Shown piece by piece: positions 4,990 through 44,951 of a stretch of 64,000 nucleotides of DNA. Made by a program: the position numbers and the translations under genes. This stretch comes from Candidatus Multivoraceae bacterium (GTDB lineage: Bacteria > Acidobacteriota > Thermoanaerobaculia > Multivoradales > Multivoraceae), in NCBI GenBank assembly GCA_965223385.1, contig CBDCWR010000004.1, positions 267,258-331,257 of the forward strand. The letters are read 5' to 3'. The notes below the pieces were generated by a model, which had not been told where the DNA came from, did not search any database, and worked only from the letters and a program-made list of their open reading frames with translations. Position 1 is the first letter of the stretch. Each line of letters starts with the position of its first letter.

Positions 4990-5031
4990 CGCAGACCGTT
5001 CCAAGGAACGCAGAAGAACCCTCGCGTCGCC

Positions 5032-6618: not shown

Positions 6619-6741
6619 CTGAACCGCCGACGTCTCGCGGAGGAACAGCTGGACGAGGTGCGCGTCGGCGCGGTTGTCCTCGATGAGGAGGACGTGGGTC
6701 TCGTTGTGCCCCGAGAGTGCGCACCGTCGACGCCCGCCGGG

Positions 6742-7135
6742 TCATCTCCACCGCGCGGCGCACCGTCTGCTCGAGCTCCTCGGGGCTACACGGTTTGGCG
6801 ACCACCGAGACGATCGAGGAGTCGCCGAGCTGGTCGGACGGCAGCTGGAGGTCTTCGGCCCCCGTGATCAGCACCGACGAGCAGGTGTCGTCGATCGCAT
6901 GAAGGCGCTGGATCAGGATGAGCCCGTCGATCCCCGGCATGAGCAGGTCGGTGATCAGCGCGTCGTAGGCCTGGTGTCTGGCCATTTCGAGCGCCGCAAC
7001 CCCGTTCGCGGCGACGTCGACGTCGTAGCCGACGCGGCGCAGCATGCCGCTGAACGACTGGCGCACGCCTCGGTCGTCATCCACGAAGAGGAGCCTGCCG
7101 ATGGGCGCGGCAGCGTCTGGCGGAGGTTGGCTCAT
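6742..7135 (-). CDS. Response-regulator receiver domain; likely the N-terminal module of the downstream REC-GGDEF-EAL protein, separated by a 1-nt frameshift
   Basis: The first 130 aa of ORF 4901..7135 form a clean REC domain (RLLFVDDDRGVRQSF...ALITDLLMPGIDG...VVAKPCSPEELEQTVRRAVE). After that the same frame becomes Arg/Pro-rich junk with no stop until 4901. Confidence 0.7.
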
Positions 7136-20178: not shown

Positions 20179-21912
20179 CTAGGGGTCGTCGTGCAGGTCG
20201 AGGCCCTGGCCAGTGGTGTCGTAGAGCGGATCCGTGTTCGGCACCGCGTCAGCCCAGAGGAATCCATCGCTCCAGAGGAGGCCGTCGGCCCAGAGGAACC
20301 CGTCAGCCCACAGGAACCCGTCGCTCCAGAGGAAGCCGTCGGCCCAGAGGAACCCGTCAGCCCAGAGGAACCCGTCGCTCCAGAGAAAGCCGTCCGACCA
20401 GAGGAACCCATCAGCCCACAGGAAGCCCGCGCTCCACTCCTCGTCACCCCAGAGCTGTGCCGTGTCTTCGACGTAGATGACGTTGGCTTCGTCGGAGCGC
20501 CCCATTTTCGGGGACAGAGCCGCCGTGACGCTTCCGGTCTCGTCGAGCGCGGCTTGGATGTCGAGCACCCCGGCACCGGTCGCGGTGGGCGAGCCGGAGA
20601 TCTTGCGCGCAGAGCGCATGAGCCGTGCTTTGACCGTTGCCGGCGTGAGGCTCGGGTCCTGCTCGACCATCAGAGCAGCTGCGCCTGACACCATGGCGGC
20701 GGCCATGCTCGTGCCCGACAGCTCGAGGTAGGCCTGGTTGTTGGGCATGAGGCGCTGGGGGAGCAGGTTCTTCAATGCGCCCTCGTACGACACCGGCTCC
20801 ACCACCCGGTTGCCGGGGGCGACCAGATCGGGCTTGAGCACGTGATCGAAGGCGGTCGGCCCCTGGGAGGAGTAGGTCGAAATGTAGTCGTCGCTGGTGT
20901 CGGCGGTGCCGCTGTCGGTCACCGAACCGACGGTGACGACCTTGCGCGAGTTGCCGGGGCTCGTGATGGTGAAGTTGCCGTCGCGGCCGTGGTTGCCGGC
21001 GGATACGACCACCACGACGCCGGCGTCCCACACCGCTTCGACGGCGGCCACCAAGGGATCGTCGGCCGCGGCCTCTTCGATGGCCTTGCCCAATGACAGG
21101 TTCGCCACGCGGACGTTGTACGCGCTGGCGTTGCCGACGAGCCAGTCGAGCGCCGCGATGACGTCGGACGTCGTTCCTCGACCCTGGGAGTCCAGGACCC
21201 GCAGGGACAGGATGTCGACGTAGGGGGCGACGCCACGAAGCTGGCCGCCGTTGGAGTAGCCGTCGCCGGCGATCAGGCCGGCGACGTGCGTACCGTGGCC
21301 CCAGGGGTCGCCGGGCCCGGAGGTGTTCGAAGAGGGGTTGCCGACGAAGTCGAACTGCATGTGTGTGGGCCAGAGATCGGTGTGGAAGCCCACGCCGGAG
21401 TCGAGGACGGCGACGCGCAAGCCGTTGCTTGTGATGCTCCAGTCGATCGGGTAGAGCGGGTGGTTGGCGGTTGCGAGGGCTGATTCGGACAGATCTTCGA
21501 CTGCATCGTCGTGCGAGACGAGCTCCACGTTGGGTGCCTTCGCGAGCTGAGTGAGACGCTTCGCGGGAATGCGAAGTGCGGCCATCCGCAGGTTGGAGAA
21601 AGGTCGGACGTCGGTCGCGCCCAGTGCTTCGAGTCGAGCGAGGTCGGCCGCGATGGGACTGGAGCGATAGGTCACGATCGCATGGAGTGTGGACTCGGGT
21701 GACTGCGTGGCAACGAGATGGGCCTTGGCGCTGACGCGGGCGTGGGAGCGTGGCGTGCTTTCGACGGACCGCTTCGTGAGTTGGCTCAGGAGAGGCGCGG
21801 AGCACAGCTGGAGAGCGGCGAGGACGATCGCTACGAATGGGAGAAACCGCCAGCTCGAGGTTCGCGAAGCAGGGTCGCAGTGGATGGAATGAGAGTGAAG
21901 AATGTAGGGCAT
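20179..21912 (-). CDS. Subtilisin-like S8 serine peptidase with a C-terminal GFLW(A/S)D hexapeptide repeat region
   Basis: Catalytic triad motifs VAVLDSGV, GHGTHVAG and SGTSMAAAMVSG. The N-terminal hydrophobic signal is followed by an inhibitor_I9-like propeptide. Start is ATG at 21912 (GGAG 6 nt upstream) or 21924 (MELT...). The rest of the 1449-aa ORF is antisense read-through. Confidence 0.85.
   Translation of the reverse strand: MPYILHSHSIHCDPASRTSSWRFLPFVAIVLAALQLCSAPLLSQLTKRSVESTPRSHARVSAKAHLVATQSPESTLHAIVTYRSSPIAADLARLEALGATDVRPFSNLRMAALRIPAKRLTQLAKAPNVELVSHDDAVEDLSESALATANHPLYPIDWSITSNGLRVAVLDSGVGFHTDLWPTHMQFDFVGNPSSNTSGPGDPWGHGTHVAGLIAGDGYSNGGQLRGVAPYVDILSLRVLDSQGRGTTSDVIAALDWLVGNASAYNVRVANLSLGKAIEEAAADDPLVAAVEAVWDAGVVVVVSAGNHGRDGNFTITSPGNSRKVVTVGSVTDSGTADTSDDYISTYSSQGPTAFDHVLKPDLVAPGNRVVEPVSYEGALKNLLPQRLMPNNQAYLELSGTSMAAAMVSGAAALMVEQDPSLTPATVKARLMRSARKISGSPTATGAGVLDIQAALDETGSVTAALSPKMGRSDEANVIYVEDTAQLWGDEEWSAGFLWADGFLWSDGFLWSDGFLWADGFLWADGFLWSDGFLWADGFLWADGLLWSDGFLWADAVPNTDPLYDTTGQGLDLHDDP
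20248..20430 (-). repeat. Ten tandem 18-bp coding repeats (GFLWAD/GFLWSD) inside the S8 peptidase gene
   Basis: Protein reads AGFLWADGFLWSDGFLWSDGFLWADGFLWADGFLWSDGFLWADGFLWADGLLWSDGFLWAD. The DNA units differ at synonymous positions. Confidence 0.9.
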
Positions 21913-22272
21913 GGTCAACTCCATCGAGGTTCGTCGCCGGGCGGCGACGTGGACACCTACAGGGTGCGCCGAGTCGAAGAGCAAGTGGTGTGCCAGCAAA
22001 AACGGTGACTCTGGCCCGAGATTTACGAGTTGTTGTCGTCGGCCGCTGCACTCGAGGCCCCTTGGAGTCGCCGGAACGGAGAGAACGGTGCGCCGGGGAA
22101 AAAAGTGGCGCTCGATCTCGAACCGGTTCTGTGCGAGCGACAGCGCCTGTGGTCTGGCCCGGCGCTTGGAGGACCGAGCGCACTCGGCTGACAGACCGCG
22201 GTGTCGAAGAGACCTGGCACTGGGAGTAGAGTCGAACCACGATTCTGATTTGCAGCGGCACGGGGGAGCACG

Positions 22273-25409: not shown

Positions 25410-26417
25410 CTAGTCGAGACGGTAGATGCGCGCCGCCGTGCCATGGAACATGGCGTGCTTCTCGTCGTCGGAGAAGTCGCGCACCATCTTCTTGAAACCG
25501 TTCCACAGGACCGGGTAGGAGATGGAGAGACGATCGACGGGGAAGTTGCTCTCGAACATGCAGCGCTCCGGGCCGAAGCACTCGATCGTGTGCAGGTAGT
25601 AGCGTCTCTGTGCGGCGACGAACTCGTCCGACGTCGGGGGCCGCTCGGCGTTGTCCCAACCGAAGCCGTTGTCGGGCATGGCCATGCCGCCGAGCTTGGC
25701 CACCACGTTCGGACACGTGGCGATCGCCGCGATGTCCGCCTTCCACTGCTCGAAGATCTCGTCCTGCCGTCCGGCATAAGCCCCCACTCCGAGGGGTGTC
25801 CCGAAGTGATCGAGGATCATCTGGGTCTCGGGCGCGGCGCGCGCGAGCTCGAGGTAGTCGCGGTTCTGGTGGTAGAAGTGCCACGTGTCGTAGGTGTAAG
25901 AGAGCCTGCCGAGTGTCTGCAGGCCCTCACGAAAGCTCGGATCCCCGTACGGGCTCTCTCGGTTGCGCCCGGCATTGGTCAGCGTGCCGGTCGTGTCGCA
26001 GGGGCCTGCGTGCCGGATGCCTCGGAAGAGCCCGCGTCCTGCCTCCTCGTGCGCCGCCAGAACCTCCTCGACCGCCGCTCCGAGCTTCAGGTTGGCGTGG
26101 CTCACGATGGCCGCGATCGTCGCCTTTCGCTTCGCCTTCGCGGACTCTGCCGCGACGCCGGCGACGTACTCGGTCTCCCCGACCGGGCGCAGATGCTCGG
26201 GTCCGTCGTCGCGATAGCTGGAGCGACAGTCGATGAAGACCGTCTTCTCGACGTTGTGGCCGGTCTCCGTGTCGCTCCAGAGGTCCTCGAGCTCGTAGCG
26301 GCCCCAGAAGGAGCTGTCCTTCCAGAGGTGGTGATGCGGGTCGACGATGGGTCGTTCTGGCTCCAGGATGTCCTCCTGGACCGAGCCCAGCCATTCGGCG
26401 CTCTTCTGTTCGGGCAT
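25410..26417 (-). CDS. Amidohydrolase_2 family protein (metal-dependent hydrolase/lactonase/decarboxylase type)
   Basis: N-terminal IVDPHHHLW motif. Later motifs ILDHFG and the terminal GTAARIYRL are typical of the amidohydrolase-2 (TIM barrel) family. Confidence 0.85.
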   Translation of the reverse strand: MPEQKSAEWLGSVQEDILEPERPIVDPHHHLWKDSSFWGRYELEDLWSDTETGHNVEKTVFIDCRSSYRDDGPEHLRPVGETEYVAGVAAESAKAKRKATIAAIVSHANLKLGAAVEEVLAAHEEAGRGLFRGIRHAGPCDTTGTLTNAGRNRESPYGDPSFREGLQTLGRLSYTYDTWHFYHQNRDYLELARAAPETQMILDHFGTPLGVGAYAGRQDEIFEQWKADIAAIATCPNVVAKLGGMAMPDNGFGWDNAERPPTSDEFVAAQRRYYLHTIECFGPERCMFESNFPVDRLSISYPVLWNGFKKMVRDFSDDEKHAMFHGTAARIYRLD

Positions 26418-26439: not shown

Positions 26440-26664
26440 TCAGTCTTTCATGCCCGGCTCGCGGTGCGCCTCCTGCGGCGGCGGTTCGGCGAGGAGGGCC
26501 CACAGATACAGGCCGACGCCCAGAACCACGAGCCCGCCACCGCCGACGAGCATGAGGCTGAAGCCGATCGGATGGGACCAGCGGAACGTCAGCAGCTCGA
26601 TCAGCAGGCCTGCGGCCGTGAGTGCCCCGGCGAGGCGGGTGCGGGTCGGGTGGGGGACACTCAT
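26440..26664 (-). CDS. Small two-TM membrane protein, translationally coupled to the NapC-like cytochrome
   Basis: Residue 164 onward of ORF 26440..27153: MSVPHPTRTRLAGALTAAGLLIELLTFRWSHPIGFSLMLVGGGGLVVLGVGLYLWALLAEPP... The ATG overlaps the upstream TGA (ATGA). Confidence 0.5.
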   Translation of the reverse strand: MSVPHPTRTRLAGALTAAGLLIELLTFRWSHPIGFSLMLVGGGGLVVLGVGLYLWALLAEPPPQEAHREPGMKD

Positions 26665-27302
26665 GGTGAGCTCCCCGCACCGAGCACGTCGCGGTCGCTC
26701 GCGTCCCAGCGAGGAAGTGCGTCGAGGTCCGGAATCGCGTGCACGGCCGAGTGGCAGTCGAGGCACGAGGTCTCGCCCTGCACCAGCGACTCGAGGTCGA
26801 GCGTGTGGAGCTCGTTGTCGAGGAAGCTCCGCGACTCCTGGTGGCAGTGAAGACAGTCGCGGTTGGCATACGGCTCGTACAGCTCCAACTGGTCCGGAAT
26901 CTGGCCAAAGTAGTTCACGAGGACGTGCTGGACTCCCTTCATCTTGGCCTCGATGTCGCCGTACATGGTGTAGCTGGTGTGGCAGTCGAAGCACGCCGTC
27001 TCCCGCGGCACGCGATGGTTCTGGTAGTGCGCGGCGGGGAGGAACTCCCCGCCGTCGAGGTCCAGGCTCTCGCCGTAGGGCTCCATGACGTGGCACGACA
27101 GGCAGAAATTGGTGGTCTTCGAGTGCTCGAGCTGGCTGGCGGTCCCGGCCCACAGGCCCACGATTGGCACGAAGACGAAGGCGAACAGCGCCAGCGCGCG
27201 ACCGGCCGGCTGCTCGACGACCGAGGGTCGCGCGAGCACCACCGCGATCAGTGCGATGCCGAGCACCAGGAAGCCGGCCAGGGCTGCGTCGAACGTCAAC
27301 AT
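26661..27302 (-). CDS. NapC/NirT (CymA-like) membrane tetraheme cytochrome c
   Basis: Four CXXCH motifs (CLSCH, CFDCH, CLHCH, CLDCH) with NapC-like context (TTNFCLSCHVM, ETSCLDCHSAVHA). Two N-terminal hydrophobic helices. Confidence 0.85.
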   Translation of the reverse strand: MLTFDAALAGFLVLGIALIAVVLARPSVVEQPAGRALALFAFVFVPIVGLWAGTASQLEHSKTTNFCLSCHVMEPYGESLDLDGGEFLPAAHYQNHRVPRETACFDCHTSYTMYGDIEAKMKGVQHVLVNYFGQIPDQLELYEPYANRDCLHCHQESRSFLDNELHTLDLESLVQGETSCLDCHSAVHAIPDLDALPRWDASDRDVLGAGSSP

Positions 27303-27316
27303 GGTCGCACTGGCGG

Positions 27317-29170
27317 TCAGAAGCGGACCCCGACTCCCAGCTCCATGATCTCAGCCGCGTAGTCGTTCAGGCCAAACCTGGTCTCGCTGTAGTCGAGGTC
27401 GCGGTAGGCCGCGCGAAGGAGGTAGCGCTCGCTCAGCTCCACGTCGGCGAATGCCCGCAGGTCCTGCTGATCGTGAGAGAACGAGCCGCCGTTGTCGTAC
27501 ACGCGAGCCTCCGCCCCGAGGCGCAGACGGTCGCTCGCGCGCACCTGCACCCGAAGGTCGAAGAAATCGGCGTCGCTCACGAAGAGGATCGGCAGGGACA
27601 GCTCCAGGCCGCCGAGGAAGCCGGGCAGGGTGGTCACGGTCTGGTCGATCGCCCGCTCCACCTCGATCCGCGAGTAGCCGCCCGAAATCTCGACCTTCCC
27701 GCGACGAACGCCGGCGCGCAGCGTCAGCGAGTCGTAGTCGACCTGCCAGTCGGAATTGTCGTTGTCGGTCTCCTGGACCAGATAGGTGCCCTGCGCATAG
27801 ACCCCCTGGGGACCCTGGTACCGCGCGTTGAGGCGCATGCGTTGCCGGTCGGTGGGGGAAGCCAGCGTGAACGGATCATCGGAGGAGCTGTCTTCGAGGG
27901 TGGCGCCGACCTTCAGCTGTTTGGTCGGACGCCAGTTCGCTGTCAGGAAGCCGCCGGTGTGCCGGGTCGAGACGTCGTGCCTCGAGGCGTCCACGAGTGC
28001 CTGCGCGTCCCGTTCCTCCTGGCGGAGGCCTACCGTGACCGTGAGCTTGCGAGTGGCCGCCATCTCGAGGCCCACGTCCGCTGCGGTCGTCTCGATCTCC
28101 CACGCGCTCGTGGCCCCGGACGACTCCACGGCCACCCGGCCGTCCTGATCGAGGTCGTGGTGGCGGACGCCCCCGATCAGGGCCAGGCGATCCGTGAGCA
28201 GCCAGGAGATCTCGACGTCCGCCAGAGTGAAGTCGCGCCTCACGTCCCCCTGCCCCTGGTCGTCGAACGCGAGAGGCTCGCCGCGGAACGAAGTGCCCTG
28301 CCCCCGCTCCGAGGTGCGGAAGTCGAGGTCGAGAGTCTCCACCTGGGCCGTGGCGTGCACCAGCAGGTCGTCCGTGGGCCGCGCGTTGACCCTGAGACTG
28401 TGGCGGTTCGAGGTGGAGTCGATCGGCTGGTCGAAGAAGTAGAGATCGAGAATCGCCGGACCGGGATTCTCCCCCTCCGACCTGCCAGGAAGGAAGATCT
28501 CCTGCGTGTTCTCGAAGGTCCGGTAGGTCTCTTCGAAGACGACCGTCGTGCGCTGCCAGCTGTGCTGGAGCGCGACGGAGATCTGATCCATCGTCTCGGA
28601 GAGGGGTTGGTCGAGCTCGAACTCGTCGCGCGAGACGTCGAAGACCGTCGTACTCTCCCCCTCTTTGGTGAACCGGTCGAAGCGGACGTCGAGCTTCGTC
28701 CTCGGTCGCAGCTGGAGCTCGAGCGAGGCGAAGTCGCGGACGCGCTGGAAATCGAAGTGATGGAAGTCACCGCCGTTCGAGAGTCGCGGGTCGACGCGTT
28801 CCGGGGGAAGGAGCAGGTCTTCGTAGAAGCGCTGCGAAGAGCGCCGACCGAAGTCGAACCGGTAGCGCCCGAGCTTGCGGGCGGAGATGTCGATCTGTTC
28901 GAACGGCTCGCCGCCCAGGCTGTCCACGCGGACCTCGAACAGGTCGAGTGCCTCGCTCGAGGGGCGGTAGTCGAAGTTCAGCTTGAAGAGCCGCGCTCCC
29001 TCGCCGAGGTTGATGTGCTGCCGGTACTTCCCCTCGGCACCTTCGACGTCGACAAAGCGCCAGCCGACCACGACCTCGCCGCCGAATGCCTCCTCCTGGC
29101 CCGTGGCCGCGGTCGTGAGGCTGCCCAACAGCGCCGCAAGGAGAACCGCCAGCGTGGGTCGTTCGAACAT
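27317..29170 (-). CDS. Large outer-membrane beta-barrel protein, MtrB/PioB/MtoB-like by context
   Basis: Signal peptide MFERPTLAVLLAALLGSLTTAATGQ. Amphipathic strand pattern throughout. C-terminal OMP beta-signal ...MELGVGVRF. Starts 7 nt after the decaheme cytochrome gene. Confidence 0.7.
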   Translation of the reverse strand: MFERPTLAVLLAALLGSLTTAATGQEEAFGGEVVVGWRFVDVEGAEGKYRQHINLGEGARLFKLNFDYRPSSEALDLFEVRVDSLGGEPFEQIDISARKLGRYRFDFGRRSSQRFYEDLLLPPERVDPRLSNGGDFHHFDFQRVRDFASLELQLRPRTKLDVRFDRFTKEGESTTVFDVSRDEFELDQPLSETMDQISVALQHSWQRTTVVFEETYRTFENTQEIFLPGRSEGENPGPAILDLYFFDQPIDSTSNRHSLRVNARPTDDLLVHATAQVETLDLDFRTSERGQGTSFRGEPLAFDDQGQGDVRRDFTLADVEISWLLTDRLALIGGVRHHDLDQDGRVAVESSGATSAWEIETTAADVGLEMAATRKLTVTVGLRQEERDAQALVDASRHDVSTRHTGGFLTANWRPTKQLKVGATLEDSSSDDPFTLASPTDRQRMRLNARYQGPQGVYAQGTYLVQETDNDNSDWQVDYDSLTLRAGVRRGKVEISGGYSRIEVERAIDQTVTTLPGFLGGLELSLPILFVSDADFFDLRVQVRASDRLRLGAEARVYDNGGSFSHDQQDLRAFADVELSERYLLRAAYRDLDYSETRFGLNDYAAEIMELGVGVRF

Positions 29171-29176
29171 CGCGCT

Positions 29177-30100
29177 CTACCTCAGAAAGCCCGGGTCCAG
29201 GTTGGACCCGTGGATCGTGACGTGGCAGCTCGTGCACTGCGTCTCTGCGGTGAAGCGTGAGTGGAAGCCGGGGACAAAGGCGTGGCAGCTGTAGCACTGC
29301 TCGGCGACGCGCTGAAACCGCAGCATGTGCCGATTGGGCGACCCGTGCGCCTCATGGCACGAGGTGCAGCCCTCGACGCGCTGGGCGCCATGCTCGAAGA
29401 CGAAAGGCCCCCCTTTGTCCGCATGGCAGGAGACGCACGACTCCTGCTTGAAGCCGGCGAGCATCGTGCGCGCCGACGGCGCATGGGGATCGTGACAGGA
29501 GGTGCACTCCAGGTCACCCTCCTCGAGGCGATGGTGCGTGGTGAAGGAGAACTGCGCGAACGAGGCCTCGTGGCAGCCCGCACAGCTCTCCGACGGGCGA
29601 CCTGCCGGGTCCATCGAGGCGATCGCGGGAGGGGGCGGCGCCTCGGCCGGAGGATGGCTGGCGTGGCAGGCCGAGCAGTCGAGGCCGCTGCGGCCGTGCT
29701 CGCTGCGGTCGTAGCGCGGGTGCTCGTCCGCGTGGCAGGAGAGGCAGCGGCGGGAGTTCTCGGCAGGTGCCTCGTCGAAGCCGAACAGGTCGGTGCCGCC
29801 CAGGTTGTCCAGGTGCGCGCTCGGATCGCCGTGGCAGCCACCGCAGCTGCGGGCCGCGCCGAGCACCGCTGCAAGGCCGTCGCGATCGAGGGCCACGTGG
29901 CCCGTGCGCGTGACCGACTCCACCGCGTCTGCATGGCAGGTCGCACAGTCGGCGAGCTCCCACGAAGGCTCCGTGTGGGGGGCCCTGGCCTTCTCTTCGC
30001 TCTGCCCCTCCAGGACGGCCCAACCGAGCAGCCCGCCAAGGCAGAACGTCGAGGCGGCGAACCACCCCAACGTGCGCTGCCTCCAAGCCGATCGCTGCAT
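29177..30100 (-). CDS. Periplasmic decaheme c-type cytochrome, MtrA/DmsE/MtoA/PioA family
   Basis: Ten CXXCH motifs (CATCH, CGGCH, CLSCH, CSACH, CAGCH, CTSCH, CVSCH, CTSCH, CYSCH, CTSCH). C-terminal CHVTIHGSN. Internal ATG at 30100 (MQRSAWRQRTLGWFAASTFCLGGLLGWAV) has AGGAGGGGGAG upstream. Confidence 0.85.
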   Translation of the reverse strand: MQRSAWRQRTLGWFAASTFCLGGLLGWAVLEGQSEEKARAPHTEPSWELADCATCHADAVESVTRTGHVALDRDGLAAVLGAARSCGGCHGDPSAHLDNLGGTDLFGFDEAPAENSRRCLSCHADEHPRYDRSEHGRSGLDCSACHASHPPAEAPPPPAIASMDPAGRPSESCAGCHEASFAQFSFTTHHRLEEGDLECTSCHDPHAPSARTMLAGFKQESCVSCHADKGGPFVFEHGAQRVEGCTSCHEAHGSPNRHMLRFQRVAEQCYSCHAFVPGFHSRFTAETQCTSCHVTIHGSNLDPGFLR

Positions 30101-30284
30101 GATTTGCTCCCCCTCCTGGGCACGTCTGCGCGGTTCTCTCGCCCGGGCTGCGAGGCCGCGCGTGGTCTCGCCTCGAAGCTGCGCAGAGCTTGGCCCTGGG
30201 CACGAGGTGCGGCCAATCGTGGCTTTCACGGATGCACCGGGGGGCACTTCTACGCGAGACTCCCGGCTCGAGGGAGGTGAGGCG

Positions 30285-30638
30285 ATGAATGGGATCTGGA
30301 TTCCTGCCGCGCTCGCGGGCCTGGCTCTTGCGCTCGGCGGTGCAGAAGAGAAGAACGAGCAGGCCGAACGGGGGCGCGAGCTCTTCGTGTCTCAGAAGTG
30401 TTCGCGCTGCCACACCGTGACACGCCACGGCATCGAGGCGCAGGTCTCGGGCGCGATGCGTGGTCCGGAGCTGGGCTCGGGACCGGAGCGCACCGCATCG
30501 TGGCTCCGCGGCTACGTGCTCCGGGAGGAGAAGATCGACGGCAAGGCCCACCCCCTGCCCTGGAAGGGCACGGAGTCGCAGCTGGACCAGGTCGTGGCGT
30601 TCCTCCTGTCTCTCCGCGACGAGGCTCCGGAAGGCTGA
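30285..30638 (+). CDS. Small periplasmic monoheme cytochrome c
   Basis: MNGIWIPAALAGLALALGGAEE signal. A single CSRCH motif. SD GGGAGG lies upstream. Divergent from the decaheme operon. Confidence 0.75.
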   Translation: MNGIWIPAALAGLALALGGAEEKNEQAERGRELFVSQKCSRCHTVTRHGIEAQVSGAMRGPELGSGPERTASWLRGYVLREEKIDGKAHPLPWKGTESQLDQVVAFLLSLRDEAPEG

Positions 30639-30674
30639 CGCGCCGCCTTCGGGCGGGCACCGTTCCGACCGGCG

Positions 30675-31163
30675 TCAGCGGCCGTCGGCCTCGTCGGACG
30701 CGTCGTCCGCACACTCCGACCGAACGCGGAAGAACGAGACGAGCCGCCAGATGTCTTCGTCGGGCAGCTGACCGCCAAACGACTGCATCTGCGTGTCGGG
30801 AACCCCGTTGTAGATGACGTCGAAGATCTCCTGGTCGGAGCCGCCGTGCGTGTTCTCGCAGTCGAAGAGGAACGGAGCTTCCTTCTTCACCTTGTCGCTC
30901 GTGGAGTGGCAGTAGCCGGTGCACACGGCGCGGAACACGTTGAGGGCGCGCGTCTGCGCCGCCTCGTCGTCGTCGTACTGCGCGCTCGGCGAGGGCTCTT
31001 CCTCGACGGACGTACCCGCCGCTCCGGCGGGCGTACCGACCCAGGCGATCCACTGCGCGACCTGATGCGTCGGTGCGGTTGCGGAGGCCTGCGCGCTCGG
31101 CTCGGTCGCAGCCGCGGGGCTCGCGAGGAGGAGAAGGAGGGGGAGGGGGGCAAGGAGCTTCAT
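30675..31163 (-). CDS. Class I-like monoheme cytochrome c with a CX3CH motif (XoxG position)
   Basis: Signal MKLLAPLPLLLLLASPAAA. Heme site VCTGYCHS. Distal Met region DTQMQSFGGQLPDEDIWRLVSFF is typical of class I cytochrome c. Lies downstream of the xoxF and xoxJ-like genes. Confidence 0.7.
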   Translation of the reverse strand: MKLLAPLPLLLLLASPAAATEPSAQASATAPTHQVAQWIAWVGTPAGAAGTSVEEEPSPSAQYDDDEAAQTRALNVFRAVCTGYCHSTSDKVKKEAPFLFDCENTHGGSDQEIFDVIYNGVPDTQMQSFGGQLPDEDIWRLVSFFRVRSECADDASDEADGR

Positions 31164-31278: not shown

Positions 31279-32139
31279 TCATCGCTCGCGCGTACCAAAT
31301 CGGCGCGGGCCGCCTCCGACTCCGGCGTCGAAGAGTGCGTCGCGGTCGGAGACCGAGTCCCAGGGGGCCCGGGTGAGTCCATAGCGGGCTGCGAGCTCGG
31401 CGATGGCTCCGTCGTGGCCGAGGGCTGCCAGCGCCTCTTCGAACTGGGCACGCAGGGCGTCGTCCCGCAGCGCGAAGTGCTCATTGAAGCGCAGTGCCGG
31501 GTGCGGCTCGAAGCCGGTCTGGGTCGCCTTCCCGAGCTTGGCCAGGGCCGGCCCCCAGAGGAGCGCGACATCGGCCTCACCGGCGTCGACGAGGGCGATC
31601 GCCTCGCCCGGGGTCGGTCGGGCCTGCCAGGTCTCGGAGCGCGCGTTGATGACGTAGTGTCCGAGCGTCTGCAGCTGCACGGCCACCCGCAGCTGCGCGA
31701 GGTCCTCGAGACCCGAGACGGGAGTTTCGCCGTAGACCTCGAAGGCCGCTCCGTAGTAGGGCTGCGTGAGGCGAAGTCCATCGGCGTCGGCGAGCGCGGC
31801 TTCTCCGGGCACCGATGCGGCGACGTCACAGGCGCCGCTCTCGACCTGGTCGAGCGGTAGATCGGAGTCTTCGATCTCGGCGAAGGCCGGGGCGCTGGGC
31901 GACCACACGGGCACGAGTCTGCGCCCCAGCCGGTCGGCGATCAGCTGGAGCAGGTCGAGGTCGAAACCGCGCCCTTCCGCCTTGCTGGCGCGCGGCAGAT
32001 CGTCGTCGAGCAGGCAGGCACGCAGAGGCTCCTGGGCCGAGGCGGAGCCCGCCACCAGGGTGGTGAGAAGCAGGGCCGGGGTCAGCGCTGCCGGGCACGT
32101 TGCCCTCGCTGGGTGACGGAGGCGTTCAGGCACGGTCAT
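31279..32139 (-). CDS. xoxJ: MoxJ/XoxJ-like periplasmic substrate-binding protein (SBP family 3), quinoprotein dehydrogenase-associated
   Basis: Signal peptide. SBP_bac_3-like layout (LRACLLDDDLP...FDLDLLQLIADRLG...DVAAS...YYGAAF...DVALLWGP). Located immediately after the PQQ dehydrogenase. Confidence 0.7.
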   Translation of the reverse strand: MTVPERLRHPARATCPAALTPALLLTTLVAGSASAQEPLRACLLDDDLPRASKAEGRGFDLDLLQLIADRLGRRLVPVWSPSAPAFAEIEDSDLPLDQVESGACDVAASVPGEAALADADGLRLTQPYYGAAFEVYGETPVSGLEDLAQLRVAVQLQTLGHYVINARSETWQARPTPGEAIALVDAGEADVALLWGPALAKLGKATQTGFEPHPALRFNEHFALRDDALRAQFEEALAALGHDGAIAELAARYGLTRAPWDSVSDRDALFDAGVGGGPRRFGTRER

Positions 32140-32152
32140 GGGCAGCCACCCG

Positions 32153-33925
32153 CTACGAGCTCGGCAGCTCGAAGACGAGAAGGACCGAGCCTTCCGGTAG
32201 CTTCACCGGGCTGCCGGTCGACGTCTGCACGATGCCGCCGCCGCCGGAACCGACCGCGAGGAAGGTTCGCCCGTCGATCTCGTAGGCGGTCGGATGGCTG
32301 CGGATGCCGGACCCGGTGCTGAAGCGCCAGACCTCTTCGCCCGACTCTGCGTCGAAAGCGAGGATGTGGCCATCCGCGTTGCCTGTGATCACCAGGCCGC
32401 CGGCCGTGGTCAGGACGCCCGCCATCATGGGGTGCTCGTCCTGATACCGCCACTTGATCTCCCCGGTCACCGAGTCGATCGCCGTCAGGTGGCCGTAGGA
32501 GCGCCCGTCGACCATGTCGACCGGAATTGGCTCGCCGCCGAAGTAGGGGACACCCTCGATGAAGATGACGAGCCCCTTCTTGAACATCATGCAGCTCTCG
32601 ATGGTCGGGATGTAGACCATGCCGGTCTTCGGGCTGTAGGCGCCGTTGTAGGCGCCGTTGTTGCCGCCGGCCAGACCGGGGCAGATGCGCTCTTTCGGGT
32701 CGTCGCTCGGTACCATGACCGGGTCGACCACGGGCCGCCCGTTCTCGCCGATCGTGCCCCAGTTGAGCTGCTCGACGTACTGGCTCGCCTGGATGAACGA
32801 GCCGTCGGTGCGGTTGAGAAGGTAGTAGTAGCCGTTGCGGTTCGCCTGCGCGATGAGCGGCGTCATGGTGCCGTTGATCTCGGCGTCGAACACGTAGAGC
32901 TCGGTGTTGCCGTCGTAGTCCCAGACGTCGTGCGGCGTGAACTGGAAGTACCACTTGCGCTCACCGGTCTTCGGATCGAGGGCGAGCACCGAGTCGCTGT
33001 AGAGGTTGTCGCCCTCGCGCACGTCGCCGTTCCAGTCGGGGCTCGGGTTTCCGGTGGCCCAGAAGAGGGTGTCCGACGACGGGTCGTAGCTGCCCGTCAC
33101 CCAGGACGCGGCGCCGCCGGTCTTGTACGAGTCGCCGGCCCAGGTCTCGACCCCGGCCTCCCCTTCGTCGGGAACGGTGTAGTGCCGCCAGGCGAGCTTG
33201 CCGGTCTCGACTTCGTAGGCGTCGAAGAAGCCGCGCACGCCGTACTCACCGCCGGCGATTCCGACGATTGCGAGATCGTGCACGATGAGGGGAGCCGAGG
33301 TGGCCGAGAAGCCCTTCTTGTAGTCGGCGATCTCGGTCGTCCACGCGATCGCGCCCGTGCGGCGGTGCAGCGCCACCAGCTTGGCGTCGAGCGTGGCCAT
33401 GAGCACGAGGTCGCCCGAGATCGCCACGCCGCGGTTGGCCGGACCGCAGCAGATGCGGAGGTCGCCGGGGTTCTGGTGGTCGTAGCGCCAGTAGAGCTCG
33501 CCGGTGACGGCATCGTGCGCGAAGACACGGTTGCCGCTGGAGGTGAGGTAGAGGATGCCGTCGTACACGATCGGTGCCGCCTCGAGCTGGCTGTTGTAGC
33601 CGGTCTGTGCGGTCCACGCGACGCGCAGGTTCTTCACCGCGCCCGGAGTCAGGGCTTCGAGGGGGCTGTAGCGCCACGACTGGTAGTTGCCGCCGAAGTG
33701 CAGCCACTCGCCGTTCGGCGAAGCCTCGAGATCGCTCGCTTTCACCGGGCCTTGGCCACGACCGATGTCGCGGTCGGTGGTCCAGTGGGTGTCGTTGAGG
33801 CCGAGCGCCTCGGCCTGCTCGTCCGACACGCCCTCCTGCTGAGCCGCGAGGGGCATGGCGAGGATCCAGATCAGGAGGCCGAGCCCAGCGCGGAGGGCTG
33901 GCGTGGCCGGGGAGGACTTGCTCAT
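32153..33925 (-). CDS. xoxF: PQQ-dependent alcohol (methanol/ethanol family) dehydrogenase, XoxF-type with a lanthanide-signature Asp
   Basis: Signal peptide. Motifs GGNYQSWRYSPL, vicinal Cys RICCGPANRG, GGEYGVRGF, GDNLYSDS, and catalytic/metal motif HDVWDYDGNTE (D-Y-D). Eight W-motif propeller pattern. Confidence 0.9.
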   Translation of the reverse strand: MSKSSPATPALRAGLGLLIWILAMPLAAQQEGVSDEQAEALGLNDTHWTTDRDIGRGQGPVKASDLEASPNGEWLHFGGNYQSWRYSPLEALTPGAVKNLRVAWTAQTGYNSQLEAAPIVYDGILYLTSSGNRVFAHDAVTGELYWRYDHQNPGDLRICCGPANRGVAISGDLVLMATLDAKLVALHRRTGAIAWTTEIADYKKGFSATSAPLIVHDLAIVGIAGGEYGVRGFFDAYEVETGKLAWRHYTVPDEGEAGVETWAGDSYKTGGAASWVTGSYDPSSDTLFWATGNPSPDWNGDVREGDNLYSDSVLALDPKTGERKWYFQFTPHDVWDYDGNTELYVFDAEINGTMTPLIAQANRNGYYYLLNRTDGSFIQASQYVEQLNWGTIGENGRPVVDPVMVPSDDPKERICPGLAGGNNGAYNGAYSPKTGMVYIPTIESCMMFKKGLVIFIEGVPYFGGEPIPVDMVDGRSYGHLTAIDSVTGEIKWRYQDEHPMMAGVLTTAGGLVITGNADGHILAFDAESGEEVWRFSTGSGIRSHPTAYEIDGRTFLAVGSGGGGIVQTSTGSPVKLPEGSVLLVFELPSS

Positions 33926-37117: not shown

Positions 37118-38575
37118 TCAGCTCGTGAAGGCGTCTCCGGGCACCCACTCCGCGTGGAAGCCGTACGGCACCCGCTGCGGCAGGATGACGCGCGCGACCG
37201 GCTCCGACTCCATGTGCTGGGCGTCGGCGACCAGCAGCTCCGACTGGCCGGCGGCCTCGTCCCGAAGGATGGTGATGACCCAGCCCTCGTCCTCGGACTG
37301 AGCTCCCGGCTTCGGCGCGAAGACCGCCTCACCGCCGAAACGGTGAGCGCCGAAGTGGTGCGTCTGGGTGGAGCGGGCGGCATGGTCGTACTTGACCACC
37401 GCGTCGAACACGGGTGGGGTTCCCGGAAGGGTCGGGCAGAAGCGCGCGGCGTAGCCGTAGCGCGAGGGGCGCCCGATGTGCCCGGCGTGCAGACGTGGGA
37501 AGTCGGTCGGCGCGTCGTCGAGCGGGGTCTCTTTCATCTCACCGGTCGCGAGGTTGAAGCGCCACTCGTGCAGGCGGCCGAGCTCCGCGTCCTCCTGCGC
37601 CAGCGTCACGTGATGCGAGTGACCGCCGTCCTGGTCGGAGTGGCCCGGCGGGGTCGCGATGGTCGTGTGGTCTGTACGGCAGCCGACGAGCACGACCTCG
37701 TCACCCTCTTCCCACGCGTTGAGGCAGTGGAACATGTAGCAGGCGGGCCCTTCGAACCAGCGCACGTCGCCGTTGTCTCCGTGGCGCGGCACGATGCCCC
37801 AGCGCGACGGCAGCTCGGCATCGAAGTGAAACGGCAGCTCCCCGTTCATGATGCGCATCGGCTCGAAGACGAGGGGCAGGTCGAAGAAGATCGTGTGGTT
37901 CGCCGTGATGGCGAAGTCGTGCATCATGACGCCGCGCGGGATGTCGATCGGCACGATGCGGACGGTCTGTCCGTCTGGGCTCACGGTGCCGTAGTGCAGG
38001 TGCTGCGGCCCCATGGGGTTGTAGCCGAAGAAAAGCATCTCGCCGGTCTCCGGGTCGACCTTGGGGTGCGCGGTGAACGGGCAGCTCAGCTGGCCGTCCC
38101 AGGTCTTGGGGCCGACCGTCTCGAGGTCGGGCAACGAGATCTCGTGCGGCTCGCCGGCCTCCCAGAGGGCGAGCAGGCTGCCGTCGTGGTGCACCAGCGC
38201 CGTGTTCGCGACGTTCTTGCGCAACAGGCCGTGGGGAGGGTTCTCGAACTGGGGCATCTCGCCGAAGCCGCTCCACAGCTTCTTCCCGGCTTCGCGCTCG
38301 TACCCGAAGCCGACGGTGCGCACCCAGCGGTTGCGGTAGGAGGCGGCGCCGTCCTCGAGCAGCACGCCGTGGAGCATGCCGTCGCCGTCGAACCAGTGGT
38401 AGGCGTCTCCCGGCTCGAACTGCGGGTTCGGACCGGTGCGCAGAAACATGCCGTGCAGCTCGCGCGGGAGCTCGCCGATCACCTCGAGGTGGTCGGCGAA
38501 CACCTCGTCGTGCACAGGCGCGAAGTTGCCGCTGAGGAAGGGGTGCGATGTGGGCTTGGATTCGGCGACGCTCAT
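37118..38575 (-). CDS. Carotenoid/apocarotenoid cleavage oxygenase family (CCD/lignostilbene dioxygenase-like)
   Basis: N-terminus FLSGNFAPVHDEV...GELPRELHGMFLRTGPNP. Family-typical His-containing blades (HWFDGDGM, ANTALVHH, AHPKVDP, HDFAIT, FHCLNAWEE, GFHAEWVP). Confidence 0.9.
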   Translation of the reverse strand: MSVAESKPTSHPFLSGNFAPVHDEVFADHLEVIGELPRELHGMFLRTGPNPQFEPGDAYHWFDGDGMLHGVLLEDGAASYRNRWVRTVGFGYEREAGKKLWSGFGEMPQFENPPHGLLRKNVANTALVHHDGSLLALWEAGEPHEISLPDLETVGPKTWDGQLSCPFTAHPKVDPETGEMLFFGYNPMGPQHLHYGTVSPDGQTVRIVPIDIPRGVMMHDFAITANHTIFFDLPLVFEPMRIMNGELPFHFDAELPSRWGIVPRHGDNGDVRWFEGPACYMFHCLNAWEEGDEVVLVGCRTDHTTIATPPGHSDQDGGHSHHVTLAQEDAELGRLHEWRFNLATGEMKETPLDDAPTDFPRLHAGHIGRPSRYGYAARFCPTLPGTPPVFDAVVKYDHAARSTQTHHFGAHRFGGEAVFAPKPGAQSEDEGWVITILRDEAAGQSELLVADAQHMESEPVARVILPQRVPYGFHAEWVPGDAFTS

Positions 38576-42072: not shown

Positions 42073-43458
42073 TCAGTTCTCCTGCAGGGCCGTGACCATG
42101 TCGATCACGGCCTGCTTGCCGTCGGCGAACAGCATCAGAGAGTTGTCGGCGGCGAAGAGTGGGTTGGGGATCCCGGCGAAGCCGGGTGAGAGAGAGCGCT
42201 TCACCACCACCACGGTGCGCGCCTTGTCCACGTCGATGATGGGCATGCCGGCGATCGGGCTGCTGGGATCCTCGCGGGCGATCGGGTTCACGACGTCGTT
42301 GGCGCCGAGCACGATCGCCACGTCCACCTGACTCATGGTGGGGTTGATGGCGTCCATCTCCACGAGCTTGTCGTAGGGGATCTCCGCCTCGGCGAGCAGC
42401 ACGTTCATGTGGCCCGGCATGCGCCCGGCGACCGGATGAATCGCAAATTCCACCTGAGAGCCTCTGTCTTCGAGCGTGTCCGTCAGGTCGCGCACGGCAT
42501 GCTGTGCCTGCGCCACCGCCAATCCGTAGCCGGGCACGATCACGACCCGCTGGGCGCCGTCGAGGAGCATCGCCACCTCGTCGGCGGAGGAGCTCTTGAC
42601 CTTGCCCGCGTAGACCTCGTCCGCGGAGGCGCCTTCGCCGGCCGCCACCGTGCCACCGCCGACCAGGACGTTGGCGAGGGAGCGGTTCATCGCCTTGCAC
42701 ATGATCTGCGTGAGGATCAGGCCGCTGGCGCCGACGAGGGAGCCGGCGATGATCAGCAGGCTGTTGTCCAGAACGAAGCCGGTGGCTGCGGCTGCGAGGC
42801 CGGAGTAGGAGTTGAGCAGCGCGATCACGACCGGCATGTCGGCACCGCCGACCGGGAGCACGACGAGCAGCCCGAGGACGCAGGAGACCCCCACCAGGAT
42901 CCAGAGGAGCTGGGTGTTGGCAGGGTCCATCGCGATCGCGGCGCACAGACCGAGCGCACCCAGGAGCAGGAGGACGTTGATCACCTGGCCACCCGGGAAC
43001 GAGATCGAGTTGCCGGTCATGACCTCCTTGAGCTTGGCCCACGCGATGATCGAGCCCGTGAGCGTGACGCCGCCGATGAGCACGGTCGCGCCGGCGGCGA
43101 TCGTGGTCTGGAGCCCCGGGTCACCTTGGGACGCGGCCTGCAGGAAGCTCGCGGTGGCGACGAGAACCGATGCAGCGCCGCCGAAGCCGTTGAAGAGCGC
43201 GACGAGCTCTGGCATGCCGGTCATCTGCACGCGGAGCGCGAGGAACGCGCCGATCGCGGTACCGACGACGAGGCCCGCGAGGATGACCCGGTAGTCGACG
43301 ATGCTCTGGTCGAGCAGAGTGACGAGAACCGCAACCAGCATGCCGCAGGAGCCGAGCAGGTTGCCGCGCACGGCCGTGCGCGGGTGCGAGAGGCCCTTGA
43401 GGCCGAGGATGAAGAGAGCGGCTGCGATCAGGTAGCCGATCTGGGCGAGCTGGCTCAT
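42073..43458 (-). CDS. pntB: NAD(P) transhydrogenase subunit beta
   Basis: MSQLAQIGYLIAAALFILGLKGLSHPRTA... Multi-TM N-terminus plus a dIII NADP(H) domain (VVIVPGYGLAVAQAQH, GANDVVNP). Confidence 0.95.
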   Translation of the reverse strand: MSQLAQIGYLIAAALFILGLKGLSHPRTAVRGNLLGSCGMLVAVLVTLLDQSIVDYRVILAGLVVGTAIGAFLALRVQMTGMPELVALFNGFGGAASVLVATASFLQAASQGDPGLQTTIAAGATVLIGGVTLTGSIIAWAKLKEVMTGNSISFPGGQVINVLLLLGALGLCAAIAMDPANTQLLWILVGVSCVLGLLVVLPVGGADMPVVIALLNSYSGLAAAATGFVLDNSLLIIAGSLVGASGLILTQIMCKAMNRSLANVLVGGGTVAAGEGASADEVYAGKVKSSSADEVAMLLDGAQRVVIVPGYGLAVAQAQHAVRDLTDTLEDRGSQVEFAIHPVAGRMPGHMNVLLAEAEIPYDKLVEMDAINPTMSQVDVAIVLGANDVVNPIAREDPSSPIAGMPIIDVDKARTVVVVKRSLSPGFAGIPNPLFAADNSLMLFADGKQAVIDMVTALQEN

Positions 43459-43737
43459 CTACTTCTTCTTCCGGAACATCGAGAGCATGCGGTTGGTGAC
43501 CAGGAAGCCGCCGACCACGTTGATCATCGCGAAGGTCACCGCGGCGAACGCAAGCGCCGTGGTCAGCTGGGAGTGCTGCGCGCCCGCGGCCAGGACGGCA
43601 CCCACGAGCGTGATGCCGGAGATGGCATTCGATCCGGACATGAGGGGCGTGTGGAGCGTCGGCGGGACCTTCGTGATCAGCTCGAAGCCGAGGAAGATCG
43701 CCATCACGAAGAGTGTGAGGGTCGTCAGGAAATCCAT
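43459..43737 (-). CDS. pntAB: NAD(P) transhydrogenase subunit alpha part 2
   Basis: 92-aa membrane protein with motifs FLGFELITKVPPTLHTPLMSGSNAISGI. Its stop abuts the pntB start. Confidence 0.9.
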   Translation of the reverse strand: MDFLTTLTLFVMAIFLGFELITKVPPTLHTPLMSGSNAISGITLVGAVLAAGAQHSQLTTALAFAAVTFAMINVVGGFLVTNRMLSMFRKKK

Positions 43738-43739
43738 GC

Positions 43740-44951
43740 TCAGGCCTTGGCTGCAGCGGGTTCGGGGGAGGAGTCCTGCGGCGGGTCCGCAGACTCGGCT
43801 TCGAGGCCGAGCTTCTCGCGCATCAACGGGTGCCGCACTTCGCCGTCTTTGGCGACGACGACGTCGTGGGTGATCTCGTCTTCGAAGTCGAACACCATCT
43901 CTCCCTCGGGCGCGAGGTGCGCGAGCAGGGTGGTCACGTTGTTCGAGAACATCTGGCTCGCGTGCCGGGCGACGGTCGACGGCAGGTCGGTCGGTCCGAA
44001 GACGGTGACGCCCTCGTGCTCGACGACCTCGTCGGCCTTCGTCACCGCGCAGTTGCCGCCGCGCTCGGCAGCGAGGTCGACGATGACGGTGCCGGGCCGC
44101 ATGCCGGCCACCATGTCGGCTTCGATCAGCAACGGCGACTGACGGCCGGGGATCGCCGCCGTGGTGATGACCACGTCCTTCTCGGCGATCACCTCGGTGA
44201 GGAACTCACGCTGACGGCGGTTGAAGTCCTCTCCCTGCGCCCGGGCGTAGCCGCCCGCGTCCTCGGCCCCTTCGGCTTCGAGTGGCAGCTGCACCGCCTT
44301 GGCGCCCAGACTTTCGATCTGCTCGCTGGCGGCGGGGCGGATGTCGTATCCCTCCACCACGGCGCCGAGCCGACGGGAGGTCGCGATGGCCTGCAGGCCA
44401 GCCACGCCAGCGCCGAGCACGAAGACCTTGGCGGCGCGGACGGTTCCGGCCGCCGTCATCATCATCGGGAACATCTGCGGAAGATGACCGGCCGCGAGCA
44501 GGACCGCCTTGTAGCCTGCGAGGGTCGCCATGGACGACAGGACGTCCATGCTCTGCGCGCGCGAGATGCGGGGGATGGTCTCGAGGGCGAGCACGTCGAC
44601 ACCCAGGCCGGCGAGCTCCGCGGTGTGCTCGGGCGTCCAGAGGGGTTCTTGAAGGCCGAGAACCGCCTGGCCTCGCTGCAGGAGCGCCAGGTCGGCGCGT
44701 CCCGCCTCGGGGTTCGCGCCCAGACCGCGCACCTGGGTGACGAGCTCTGCCGCGCCCAGGAGATCGGCGCGGCTGCCGACGATCGAGGCGCCGGCTTCTT
44801 CGAAGTCCGCATCGGGGTAGCCGGCGGGTGTCCCCGCGCCGCTCTCGACGGCGACCGTGTGTCCGGCTTGAATGAGCTTGGCCACGCTCGGCGGAGTGAG
44901 CGCGACGCGCTGTTCTCCCGGAGCGGACTCGACGGGTACTGCGATCTTCAA
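43740..44951 (-). CDS. pntAA: NAD(P) transhydrogenase subunit alpha part 1 (dI, alanine dehydrogenase-like)
   Basis: MKIAVPVESAPGEQRVALTP... Rossmann loop VLGAGVAGLQAI. Motif RISRAQSMDVLSS. Confidence 0.9.
   Translation of the reverse strand: MKIAVPVESAPGEQRVALTPPSVAKLIQAGHTVAVESGAGTPAGYPDADFEEAGASIVGSRADLLGAAELVTQVRGLGANPEAGRADLALLQRGQAVLGLQEPLWTPEHTAELAGLGVDVLALETIPRISRAQSMDVLSSMATLAGYKAVLLAAGHLPQMFPMMMTAAGTVRAAKVFVLGAGVAGLQAIATSRRLGAVVEGYDIRPAASEQIESLGAKAVQLPLEAEGAEDAGGYARAQGEDFNRRQREFLTEVIAEKDVVITTAAIPGRQSPLLIEADMVAGMRPGTVIVDLAAERGGNCAVTKADEVVEHEGVTVFGPTDLPSTVARHASQMFSNNVTTLLAHLAPEGEMVFDFEDEITHDVVVAKDGEVRHPLMREKLGLEAESADPPQDSSPEPAAAKA

Follow-up and report, generated by a model that had tools for sequence, protein, structure and literature searches.

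To our knowledge, electron conduits of the MtrAB/MtoAB type have been studied almost only in Proteobacteria. In Sideroxydans lithotrophicus ES-1 (MtoA-MtoB-MtoD-CymA) and in Rhodopseudomonas palustris TIE-1 (PioAB), the gene for a decaheme cytochrome lies immediately upstream of the gene for an outer membrane barrel of about 26 strands. The Sideroxydans mto cluster also carries a monoheme cytochrome c and a NapC/NirT-type tetraheme cytochrome with a CXXCHxM motif at heme 1, and it has no MtrC/OmcA (PMC10654088). Earlier work found homologs of PioA and PioB to be widespread among Acidobacteria (PMC10654088), and one survey found CymA homologs only in Proteobacteria and none in Acidobacteria (PMC6295460). 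Here we describe a cluster of five genes that shares all of these features of the Sideroxydans cluster and is located in Candidatus Multivoraceae bacterium (Acidobacteriota; Thermoanaerobaculia). It lies in a stretch of 64,000 nucleotides (nt), positions 267,258 to 331,257 of contig CBDCWR010000004.1 (assembly GCA_965223385.1), which is called the window below. What the five genes encode is very probably an electron conduit of the porin-cytochrome type, of the kind represented by MtrAB, MtoAB and PioAB.

The locus differs from the Sideroxydans mto and PioAB systems in its acidobacterial host, in its shorter barrel of 617 amino acids (aa), and in core proteins that score below the TIGR03508 and PF11854/TIGR03509 cut-offs. 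Among solved structures, the decaheme cytochrome is most closely related to MtrA of Shewanella MtrCAB (6R2Q), and the barrel is closest in fold to MtrB of the same complex, with the same strand count. Unlike the situation in Shewanella, the quinol dehydrogenase gene of the window is inside the cluster and not elsewhere in the genome, and no extracellular decaheme of the MtrC/OmcA/UndA type is present in the window or in related loci. The decaheme and barrel also give partial matches to the models for Geobacter sulfurreducens GSU2203 and GSU2204 (NF041028 and NF041027), far below the cut-offs, and the barrel lacks the heme motif of GSU2204 (CXXCH/selenocysteine). The architecture is of the Mto/Pio type, a two-component outer membrane conduit with a quinone-pool module in the same cluster. 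The original prediction, made from the DNA sequence of the window, had equated the parts list with that of mtoA-mtoB-mtoD-cymA. This is true by protein class and not by orthology: the tetraheme appears to belong to another subfamily, and the monoheme has no detectable similarity to MtoD.

The five-gene cluster

Four genes lie head to tail on the minus strand between positions 26440 and 30100. They encode a decaheme c-type cytochrome of 307 aa that is MtrA/MtoA/PioA/DmsE-like (29177-30100), the MtrB/MtoB/PioB-like outer membrane beta-barrel of 617 aa with about 26 predicted strands (27317-29170), a NapC/NirT-family tetraheme cytochrome of 213 aa with two N-terminal transmembrane (TM) segments (26661-27302), and a small membrane protein of 74 aa (26440-26664). 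The decaheme stop codon and the barrel ATG are 6 nt apart, 14 nt separate the barrel from the tetraheme gene, and the ATG of the 74-aa gene overlaps the tetraheme TGA as ATGA, so that these last two genes appear to be translationally coupled. The fifth gene is divergent. It begins 184 bp upstream of the decaheme gene and encodes a monoheme class I cytochrome c of 117 aa with a signal peptide and one CXXCH (30285-30638, plus strand). The decaheme ATG at 30100 is preceded by a GGAGG Shine-Dalgarno sequence about 11 nt upstream, and GGAGG is likewise found upstream of the monoheme ATG at 30285.

The four packed, co-directional genes and the divergent monoheme gene are thus all where they had been predicted to be. 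The span given for them, 26440-31163, does contain the five genes, but its upper end takes in a second cytochrome c gene (30675-31163, minus strand), co-directional with the four, that belongs to an adjacent cluster for a dehydrogenase dependent on pyrroloquinoline quinone (PQQ).

The G+C content is about 69% across the whole window, and real genes are marked by their third-position GC. A scan of the open reading frames (ORFs) of the window revealed none with more than one CXXCH outside the cluster. Because of this, and because dozens of distantly related genomes carry it as well, the gene set is far beyond chance.

Decaheme cytochrome and outer membrane barrel

The decaheme cytochrome has exactly ten CXXCH motifs in its 307 aa, a C-terminal end with the sequence CTSCHVTIHGSN, and an N-terminus that is moderately hydrophobic as judged by eye. 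Its sole significant match among PDB sequences is 6R2Q_A (E=1.4e-22, residues 51-304). This chain is the MtrA subunit of the Mtr complex from Shewanella baltica; the PDB match table mislabels the molecule. A profile of the family, built from 52 homologs, retrieves the same chain at E=6.7e-38, with the next match at 1.5e-10. The decaheme and MtrA share 29% identity over 255 aligned columns, and the alignment runs over all ten hemes, which argues for a relative of MtrA, as had been proposed, rather than an unrelated periplasmic reductase subunit. Among the 52 homologs, none of the ten CXXCH motifs varies, nor do 11 additional histidines. These histidines would be enough for bis-His ligation of ten hemes, with a putative pairing of each histidine to its heme. 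The GSU2203 decaheme model (NF041028) gives 133 bits against a cut-off of 325.

The barrel has an N-terminal hydrophobic signal segment, ends in GVGVRF and contains no heme motif. An AlphaFold (AF2) model calculated from a 65-sequence alignment has a predicted local distance difference test (pLDDT) score of 90.5 and a predicted template modeling (pTM) score of 0.82. DSSP assigns 27 strand segments to this model, and when 240-247 and 250-266 are read as one kinked strand, the count becomes about 26. In a Foldseek comparison of the model with the PDB, MtrB (6R2Q_B) is first, with E=1.8e-16 and template modeling (TM) scores of 0.73/0.70. All the other matches are 22-strand TonB-dependent transporters with TM scores ≤0.5. 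By simple barrel geometry, 26 strands would give a backbone diameter near 48 Å, which agrees with the diameter of about 50 Å in models of MtrB, MtoB and PioB (PMC10654088). The sequence identity to MtrB is only 12%, and the modeled relationship between the barrel and MtrB is one of fold rather than of sequence. The confident model, its strand count and MtrB as best fold match agree with the large barrel that had been predicted, and not with a porin of fewer than 18 strands.

The barrel family is large: a word-indexed search gave 199 matches, and 1.8 billion representatives, searched exhaustively with a profile, gave 1193 clusters. PF11854 (MtrB_PioB) is matched by 36 of 65 sampled members at E<=0.01, the best at 1.2e-15, and some relatives are named 'MtrB/PioB family outer membrane beta-barrel protein' by NCBI/PGAP. 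The GSU2204 model (NF041027) matches the barrel of the window locally (33 bits, E=2.6e-8; cut-off 350).

Several results speak against assigning the two core proteins to a conduit of this kind. TIGR03508, the DmsE family model, matches the decaheme over 254 of its 258 positions (E=6.2e-50), but at 170.1 bits it falls short of the cut-off of 192.2. The barrel scores 17.3 bits with PF11854, for which the cut-off is 23, and has no match to TIGR03509 at E<=0.01 in the NCBIfam scan. The profile of 65 barrel homologs did not retrieve MtrB from the PDB sequences, and ten longer distant relatives of 680-740 aa that were scanned are all far below TIGR03509. A sequence bridge from the barrel to bona fide MtrB/PioB proteins was therefore tried and failed, as the distant members also miss TIGR03509. 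Finally, a heme-free AlphaFold model of the decaheme is poor (pLDDT 70, pTM 0.46). MtrA is still its top fold match, with a TM score of only 0.23; the model was left out of the evidence because a model without hemes is poor.

The profile hidden Markov model search proposed for the core proteins thus gave a divided result, with homology to the DmsE family recovered, the curated cut-offs of TIGR03508 and PF11854 missed and no match to TIGR03509. From its sequence the decaheme is a clear homolog outside the curated TIGR03508 core. Since the decaheme and barrel both score below the curated DmsE and MtrB/PioB cut-offs, they appear to form a distinct clade, and the membership suggested by the profile scores is that of homologs in a clade of their own.

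Tetraheme cytochrome, small membrane protein and monoheme cytochrome

The tetraheme cytochrome matches PF03264 (NapC/NirT) at 56 bits, above the cut-off of 24. The NCBIfam models for NrfH, TorC and NapC/NirT each give 50-56 bits, far below their cut-offs, and the PDB contributes a weak match to NrfH. Its 697 relatives are annotated only as 'NapC/NirT family cytochrome c'. The first of its four CXXCH motifs, CLSCHVMEPYG, is of the NrfH type (CXXCHxM) and is conserved in 17 barrel-linked homologs, as are both hydrophobic segments, 6-24 and 36-54 (Kyte-Doolittle 2.8 and 2.1, respectively).

Of the 16 Acidobacteriota-type loci with a tetraheme gene, 14 have the gene for the 74-aa protein after it. 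The 74-aa protein has no Pfam or NCBIfam match. It has one strong and one weaker hydrophobic segment and a conserved hairpin motif, GLLVE..TL.W.HP.AF...GG, and it is probably a subunit of the tetraheme inner membrane module.

CymA is defined by a single N-terminal TM anchor and by the lack of a dedicated membrane partner, and in Sideroxydans a single N-terminal TM helix is predicted for it (PMC10654088). The tetraheme of the window departs from this description on both counts. Because it has two TM segments and a dedicated, conserved small partner, it is probably not an ortholog of CymA, and its sequence suggests a distinct NapC/NirT subfamily. Of the NapC/CymA-like tetraheme quinol dehydrogenase originally proposed, the NapC/NirT family assignment is retained, and the description of a stand-alone CymA with a single TM segment is not.

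The monoheme cytochrome matches PF00034 at 31.5 bits and is a generic class I cytochrome c. Its relatives have a fully conserved histidine about 50 residues after the CXXCH and a semi-conserved methionine. At E<=10, its only matches to PDB sequences were generic class I cytochromes, which were picked up by their heme motif. No chain of MtoD was among them; a structure of MtoD is, we assume, present in the PDB. The monoheme thus differs from MtoD in having no detectable similarity to it.

The divergent intergenic region of 184 bp (30101-30284) between the monoheme and decaheme genes is presumably a shared regulatory region. It contains CCTGGGCACG twice (30115 and 30195) and GGGCAC three times, the third at 30242, in a 24-nt imperfect direct repeat. 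The GGGCAC repeats were considered as a sigma-54 -24/-12 promoter and rejected, as their spacing does not fit and their occurrence does not clearly exceed chance. A scan of 30101-30284 gave no sigma-70-like promoter, promoter and terminator scans did no better than on shuffled sequences, and the window has no Rfam matches.

Related loci and conserved linkage

A search with the barrel alignment against one genome per species (GTDB r232) gave 63 related loci, all in metagenome-assembled genomes. Linkage was counted from our own ORF calls and phmmer; 34 Acidobacteriota-type loci have at least 3.5 kb of flank. Most of the 63 loci are from Thermoanaerobaculia (including 'Ca. Multivoradales') and other Acidobacteriota, about 40 being of the Acidobacteriota type, and the 63 also include one locus from Vicinamibacterales, one from Gemmatimonadota and two from Aminicenantes. 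A separate group is made up of Gammaproteobacteria (Woeseia, Pseudomonadales, Marinicella) and Rhodospirillaceae. In a rough neighbor-joining tree, which carries no support values, the proteobacterial and acidobacterial barrels separate, and the window is placed in the subclade with NapC-type modules. The closest homologs are named Thermoanaerobaculia, in keeping with the non-proteobacterial host that had been suggested. The best barrel identity to the window copy among the 63 loci is only 48%, so the species of the window is not among the GTDB representatives. Two metagenome contigs, L068 at 72% identity and L069 at 60%, have exactly the gene order of the window.

The decaheme gene is directly upstream of the barrel gene in 37 of 38 Acidobacteriota-type and 15 of 15 proteobacterial-type loci (52 of the 53 with enough upstream sequence). 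In the 34 Acidobacteriota-type loci, the monoheme gene is linked to the pair in 26, the NapC-type tetraheme gene in 16 and the gene for the 74-aa protein in 14. There are at least four different gene arrangements among these loci, and the monoheme is linked to the decaheme-barrel pair whichever inner membrane module is present.

Ten of the 34 have, in place of the tetraheme module, a CbcL/MtoC-like protein with 11 hemes and a cytochrome b561 domain at its C-terminus (loci L013, L014, L015, L023, L025, L033, L037, L040, L043 and L049, upstream of the decaheme gene at about position 5000). Most of these loci also encode a multi-TM NapC/NirT protein of about 500 aa with five hemes and an ImcH-like architecture; the ImcH and CbcL assignments are by domain architecture only. 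L014 additionally has a 15-heme version. These sister loci resemble the MtoC/CbcL- and ImcH-linked mtoAB/mtrAB clusters of Gallionella, Dechloromonas and Rhodoferax and the CbcL/ImcH systems of Geobacter, and the exchange of NapC for CbcL mirrors the proteobacterial alternation of cymA with mtoC (PMC6295460). Unlike the MtoC/CbcL-linked clusters, the window itself carries the NapC-type module.

The large multiheme neighbors in the sister loci were also considered as candidates for MtrC/UndA and rejected. They have no MtrC/OmcA domains above noise, and Pfam places cytochrome b561 or NapC/NirT membrane domains in them, because of which they are regarded as inner membrane modules. No MtrC/OmcA-type cytochrome was found by the ORF scan of the window or in the 63 related loci, and the absence of an outer-surface decaheme that had been pointed out is confirmed.

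In the proteobacterial loci (L034 1887-4948, L041 3772-5043 and about ten others), the decaheme-barrel pair is divergent beside the operon for the Na+-NQR (nqrA-F). Only the pair is present there, with no linked monoheme or quinol dehydrogenase gene. In L002 (OZ375331.1, 12.2 Mb), a 576-aa PQQ_2 beta-propeller protein is encoded directly upstream of the pair (5184-6914), and neither a NapC nor a monoheme gene is near it.

Annotation pipelines already label relatives of the two core proteins as 'DmsE family decaheme' and 'MtrB/PioB family barrel', and for this reason the finding is incremental rather than surprising. Our literature search found no description of this particular five-gene conduit module of Thermoanaerobaculia. 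Three points are modestly new: a conserved tetraheme with two TM segments and a small partner, a monoheme that is constant across Acidobacteriota-type loci, and the NapC-for-CbcL exchange within the Acidobacteriota. Thermoanaerobaculia belong to the most abundant Acidobacteriota of marine sediments (PMC8528874), and only one representative of the class is in culture. The conduit of this class is conserved and self-contained, with a quinone-pool module of its own that is swapped between subclades and with no surface cytochrome partner. This provides a genetic handle on whether metal oxides are reduced by these bacteria or reduced minerals serve them as a source of electrons, and should be useful for the genomics of the iron cycle in sediments.

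Proposed mechanism and direction of electron flow

The data show that the decaheme is a homolog of MtrA, that fold and strand count of the barrel resemble those of MtrB, that the tetraheme is of the NapC/NirT family, and that the linkage of their genes is conserved. Because the pair is linked, related to MtrA and MtrB in these respects and accompanied by swappable quinone-pool modules, one conduit mechanism fits the loci. The ten-heme cytochrome would be threaded through the lumen of the 26-strand barrel, an insertion that we infer from the individual chains, and its chain of bis-His hemes would span the outer membrane with the last heme exposed at the cell surface. In the inner membrane, the NapC/NirT-type tetraheme, held by its two-helix anchor and paired with the small membrane protein, would exchange electrons with the quinone/quinol pool. 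The soluble monoheme cytochrome c is a likely shuttle that would carry electrons across the periplasm between the tetraheme and the decaheme. Since no MtrC/OmcA-type surface cytochrome is involved, the decaheme itself would be the surface redox site.

A heme chain of this kind is in principle reversible, and its sequence does not settle the direction of flow. Outward flow, in which a facultatively anaerobic heterotroph would oxidize quinol and reduce Fe(III)/Mn(IV) or humics outside the cell, is tentatively preferred, at a likelihood just short of even. A slight lean in this direction comes from the CbcL- and ImcH-like modules of the sister loci, which in Geobacter are the quinol oxidases of metal reduction (PMC6295460), from the sole cultured member of the class, which reduces Fe/Mn oxides according to work cited in PMC8528874, and from the neighboring genes in the window, which are only heterotrophic or housekeeping. 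The NrfH-type CXXCHxM motif at heme 1 of the tetraheme also supports it. Each of these points is weak. Besides the reversibility of the chain, it counts against outward flow that the MtoC of Fe(II) oxidizers is also CbcL-like and that the CymA of Sideroxydans also has a CXXCHxM motif (PMC10654088). The metal reduction cluster proposed for marine Thermoanaerobaculia and Thermoanaerobaculum (PMC8528874) was rejected as evidence, as it is another system, which combines an NHL-repeat protein with other barrels and with extracellular cytochromes.

Inward flow, as in MtoAB/PioAB, has a smaller but substantial share of the probability. The surface decaheme would oxidize Fe(II), reduced minerals, a cathode or a partner cell, and electrons would pass through the monoheme either to a terminal oxidase or to the NapC-type tetraheme in the role of quinone reductase. 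The histidine that is fully conserved as a second one in the monoheme is compatible with this, if MtoD has the bis-His heme ligation that we take it to have, but the monoheme has no detected sequence similarity to MtoD. By class the parts list is that of the Sideroxydans mtoA-mtoB-mtoD-cymA set (PMC10654088), and members of the family are also found in Gammaproteobacteria of sediments, among them Woeseia. In FeGenie, MtoAB counts as 'probable iron oxidation', more fully as 'probable oxidation, possible reduction' (PMC7005843). The window and the 63 loci have no MtrC/OmcA, as is the case in Fe(II) oxidizers, which lack MtrC. This absence is not diagnostic, however, since iron is reduced by a Magnetospirillum that has MtrAB alone, and since Fe(III) reduction by a Shewanella mtrA mutant is restored by MtoA (PMC7005843). 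The argument of the original prediction, from a missing MtrC to a function like that of PioAB/MtoAB, is therefore sound as to the absence, which does not establish the oxidizing direction. Nor is there any marker of autotrophy or Fe(II) oxidation, such as Cyc2, in the window, and the ImcH-like and CbcL-like modules of the sister loci are typical of Geobacter reducers (PMC6295460).

Two further explanations concern the role of the pair itself. Instead of minerals, it might feed a dedicated non-heme terminal reductase or oxidase on the cell surface, as DmsEF serves the extracellular dimethyl sulfoxide reductase DmsAB in Shewanella. The curated family that best fits the decaheme, TIGR03508, is indeed named after DmsE, and pairs of the MtrAB type without MtrC are described in PMC9732548, for Shewanella, as serving such enzymes. 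This arrangement is extremely improbable here, as the pair in the window has neither a molybdoenzyme nor any other candidate surface enzyme beside it, its neighbors being an amidohydrolase, a CHAT protein and the PQQ-dependent alcohol dehydrogenase cluster, and as no such enzyme recurs in the related loci, where the recurrent neighbors are only cytochromes and the proteobacterial nqr operon. Alternatively there might be no conduit at all. The decaheme would then be soluble in the periplasm, as an electron carrier or as a subunit of a reductase, and the barrel would be a large porin unrelated to it whose gene is co-transcribed by coincidence. The cut-offs missed by both proteins and the failure of the barrel profile to reach MtrB by sequence would be expected in that case, but an adjacency that is near-universal in about 50 species of several phyla, a 26-strand barrel with MtrB as its only close structural match and a decaheme homologous to MtrA from end to end make this explanation almost certainly wrong.

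Genomic neighborhood

The second cytochrome c gene (30675-31163, minus strand) encodes a protein of 162 aa whose sole heme motif is CTGYCH, that is, CX3CH and not CXXCH. Upstream of the conduit genes it is preceded on the same strand by genes for a MoxJ-like binding protein (31279-32139) and a dehydrogenase of the PQQ methanol/ethanol family (32153-33925; TIGR03075, 546 bits). The dehydrogenase has a WDYDG motif, which we take to mark lanthanide dependence in XoxF/ExaF enzymes. The second cytochrome c belongs to this PQQ-dependent alcohol dehydrogenase cluster, and in the other related loci examined it is not linked to the conduit. In L069 an unrelated gene is at the position of the PQQ cluster. 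A functional link between conduit and PQQ cluster was rejected as the principal interpretation, given that only 2 of about 65 other loci have a PQQ-type gene close to the pair. It is highly improbable that the conduit is the outlet of a periplasmic alcohol-oxidizing chain and that, independently, the tetraheme and 74-aa protein are an undescribed two-subunit module for entry to the quinone pool, specific to conduits of Acidobacteriota. If this were so, electrons from XoxF-type alcohol oxidation would pass through c-type cytochromes to the decaheme and on to extracellular acceptors, which would permit alcohol oxidation without oxygen.

An Amidohydro_2 gene (25410-26417, minus strand) follows the 74-aa gene after 22 nt and is found at the same position in L068, at 72% identity. 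It may be co-transcribed with the conduit genes; in more distant loci its position beside the conduit is not conserved. Other neighbors in the window encode a CHAT protein, an aldo-keto reductase, a subtilase, an enolase and a phosphofructokinase. The flanking ADOP gene of the original prediction was not recovered, the ADOP model having no match among the ten large window ORFs scanned. A carotenoid oxygenase of the RPE65 type (37118-38575, minus strand, 488 bits) and the proton-translocating transhydrogenase PntAB (42073-44951, minus strand) are encoded farther upstream. These are ordinary chromosomal genes and are consistent with a location of the conduit in the core genome, not in an island.

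The subtilase, of the S8 family (20179-22101, minus strand), ends in about ten tandem six-residue units (DGFLWS/A), and the corresponding DNA (20247-20436) is an 18/54-nt tandem repeat with 76-91% matches. It is probably the gene that had been noted earlier for an 'ELWxxDGT' motif.

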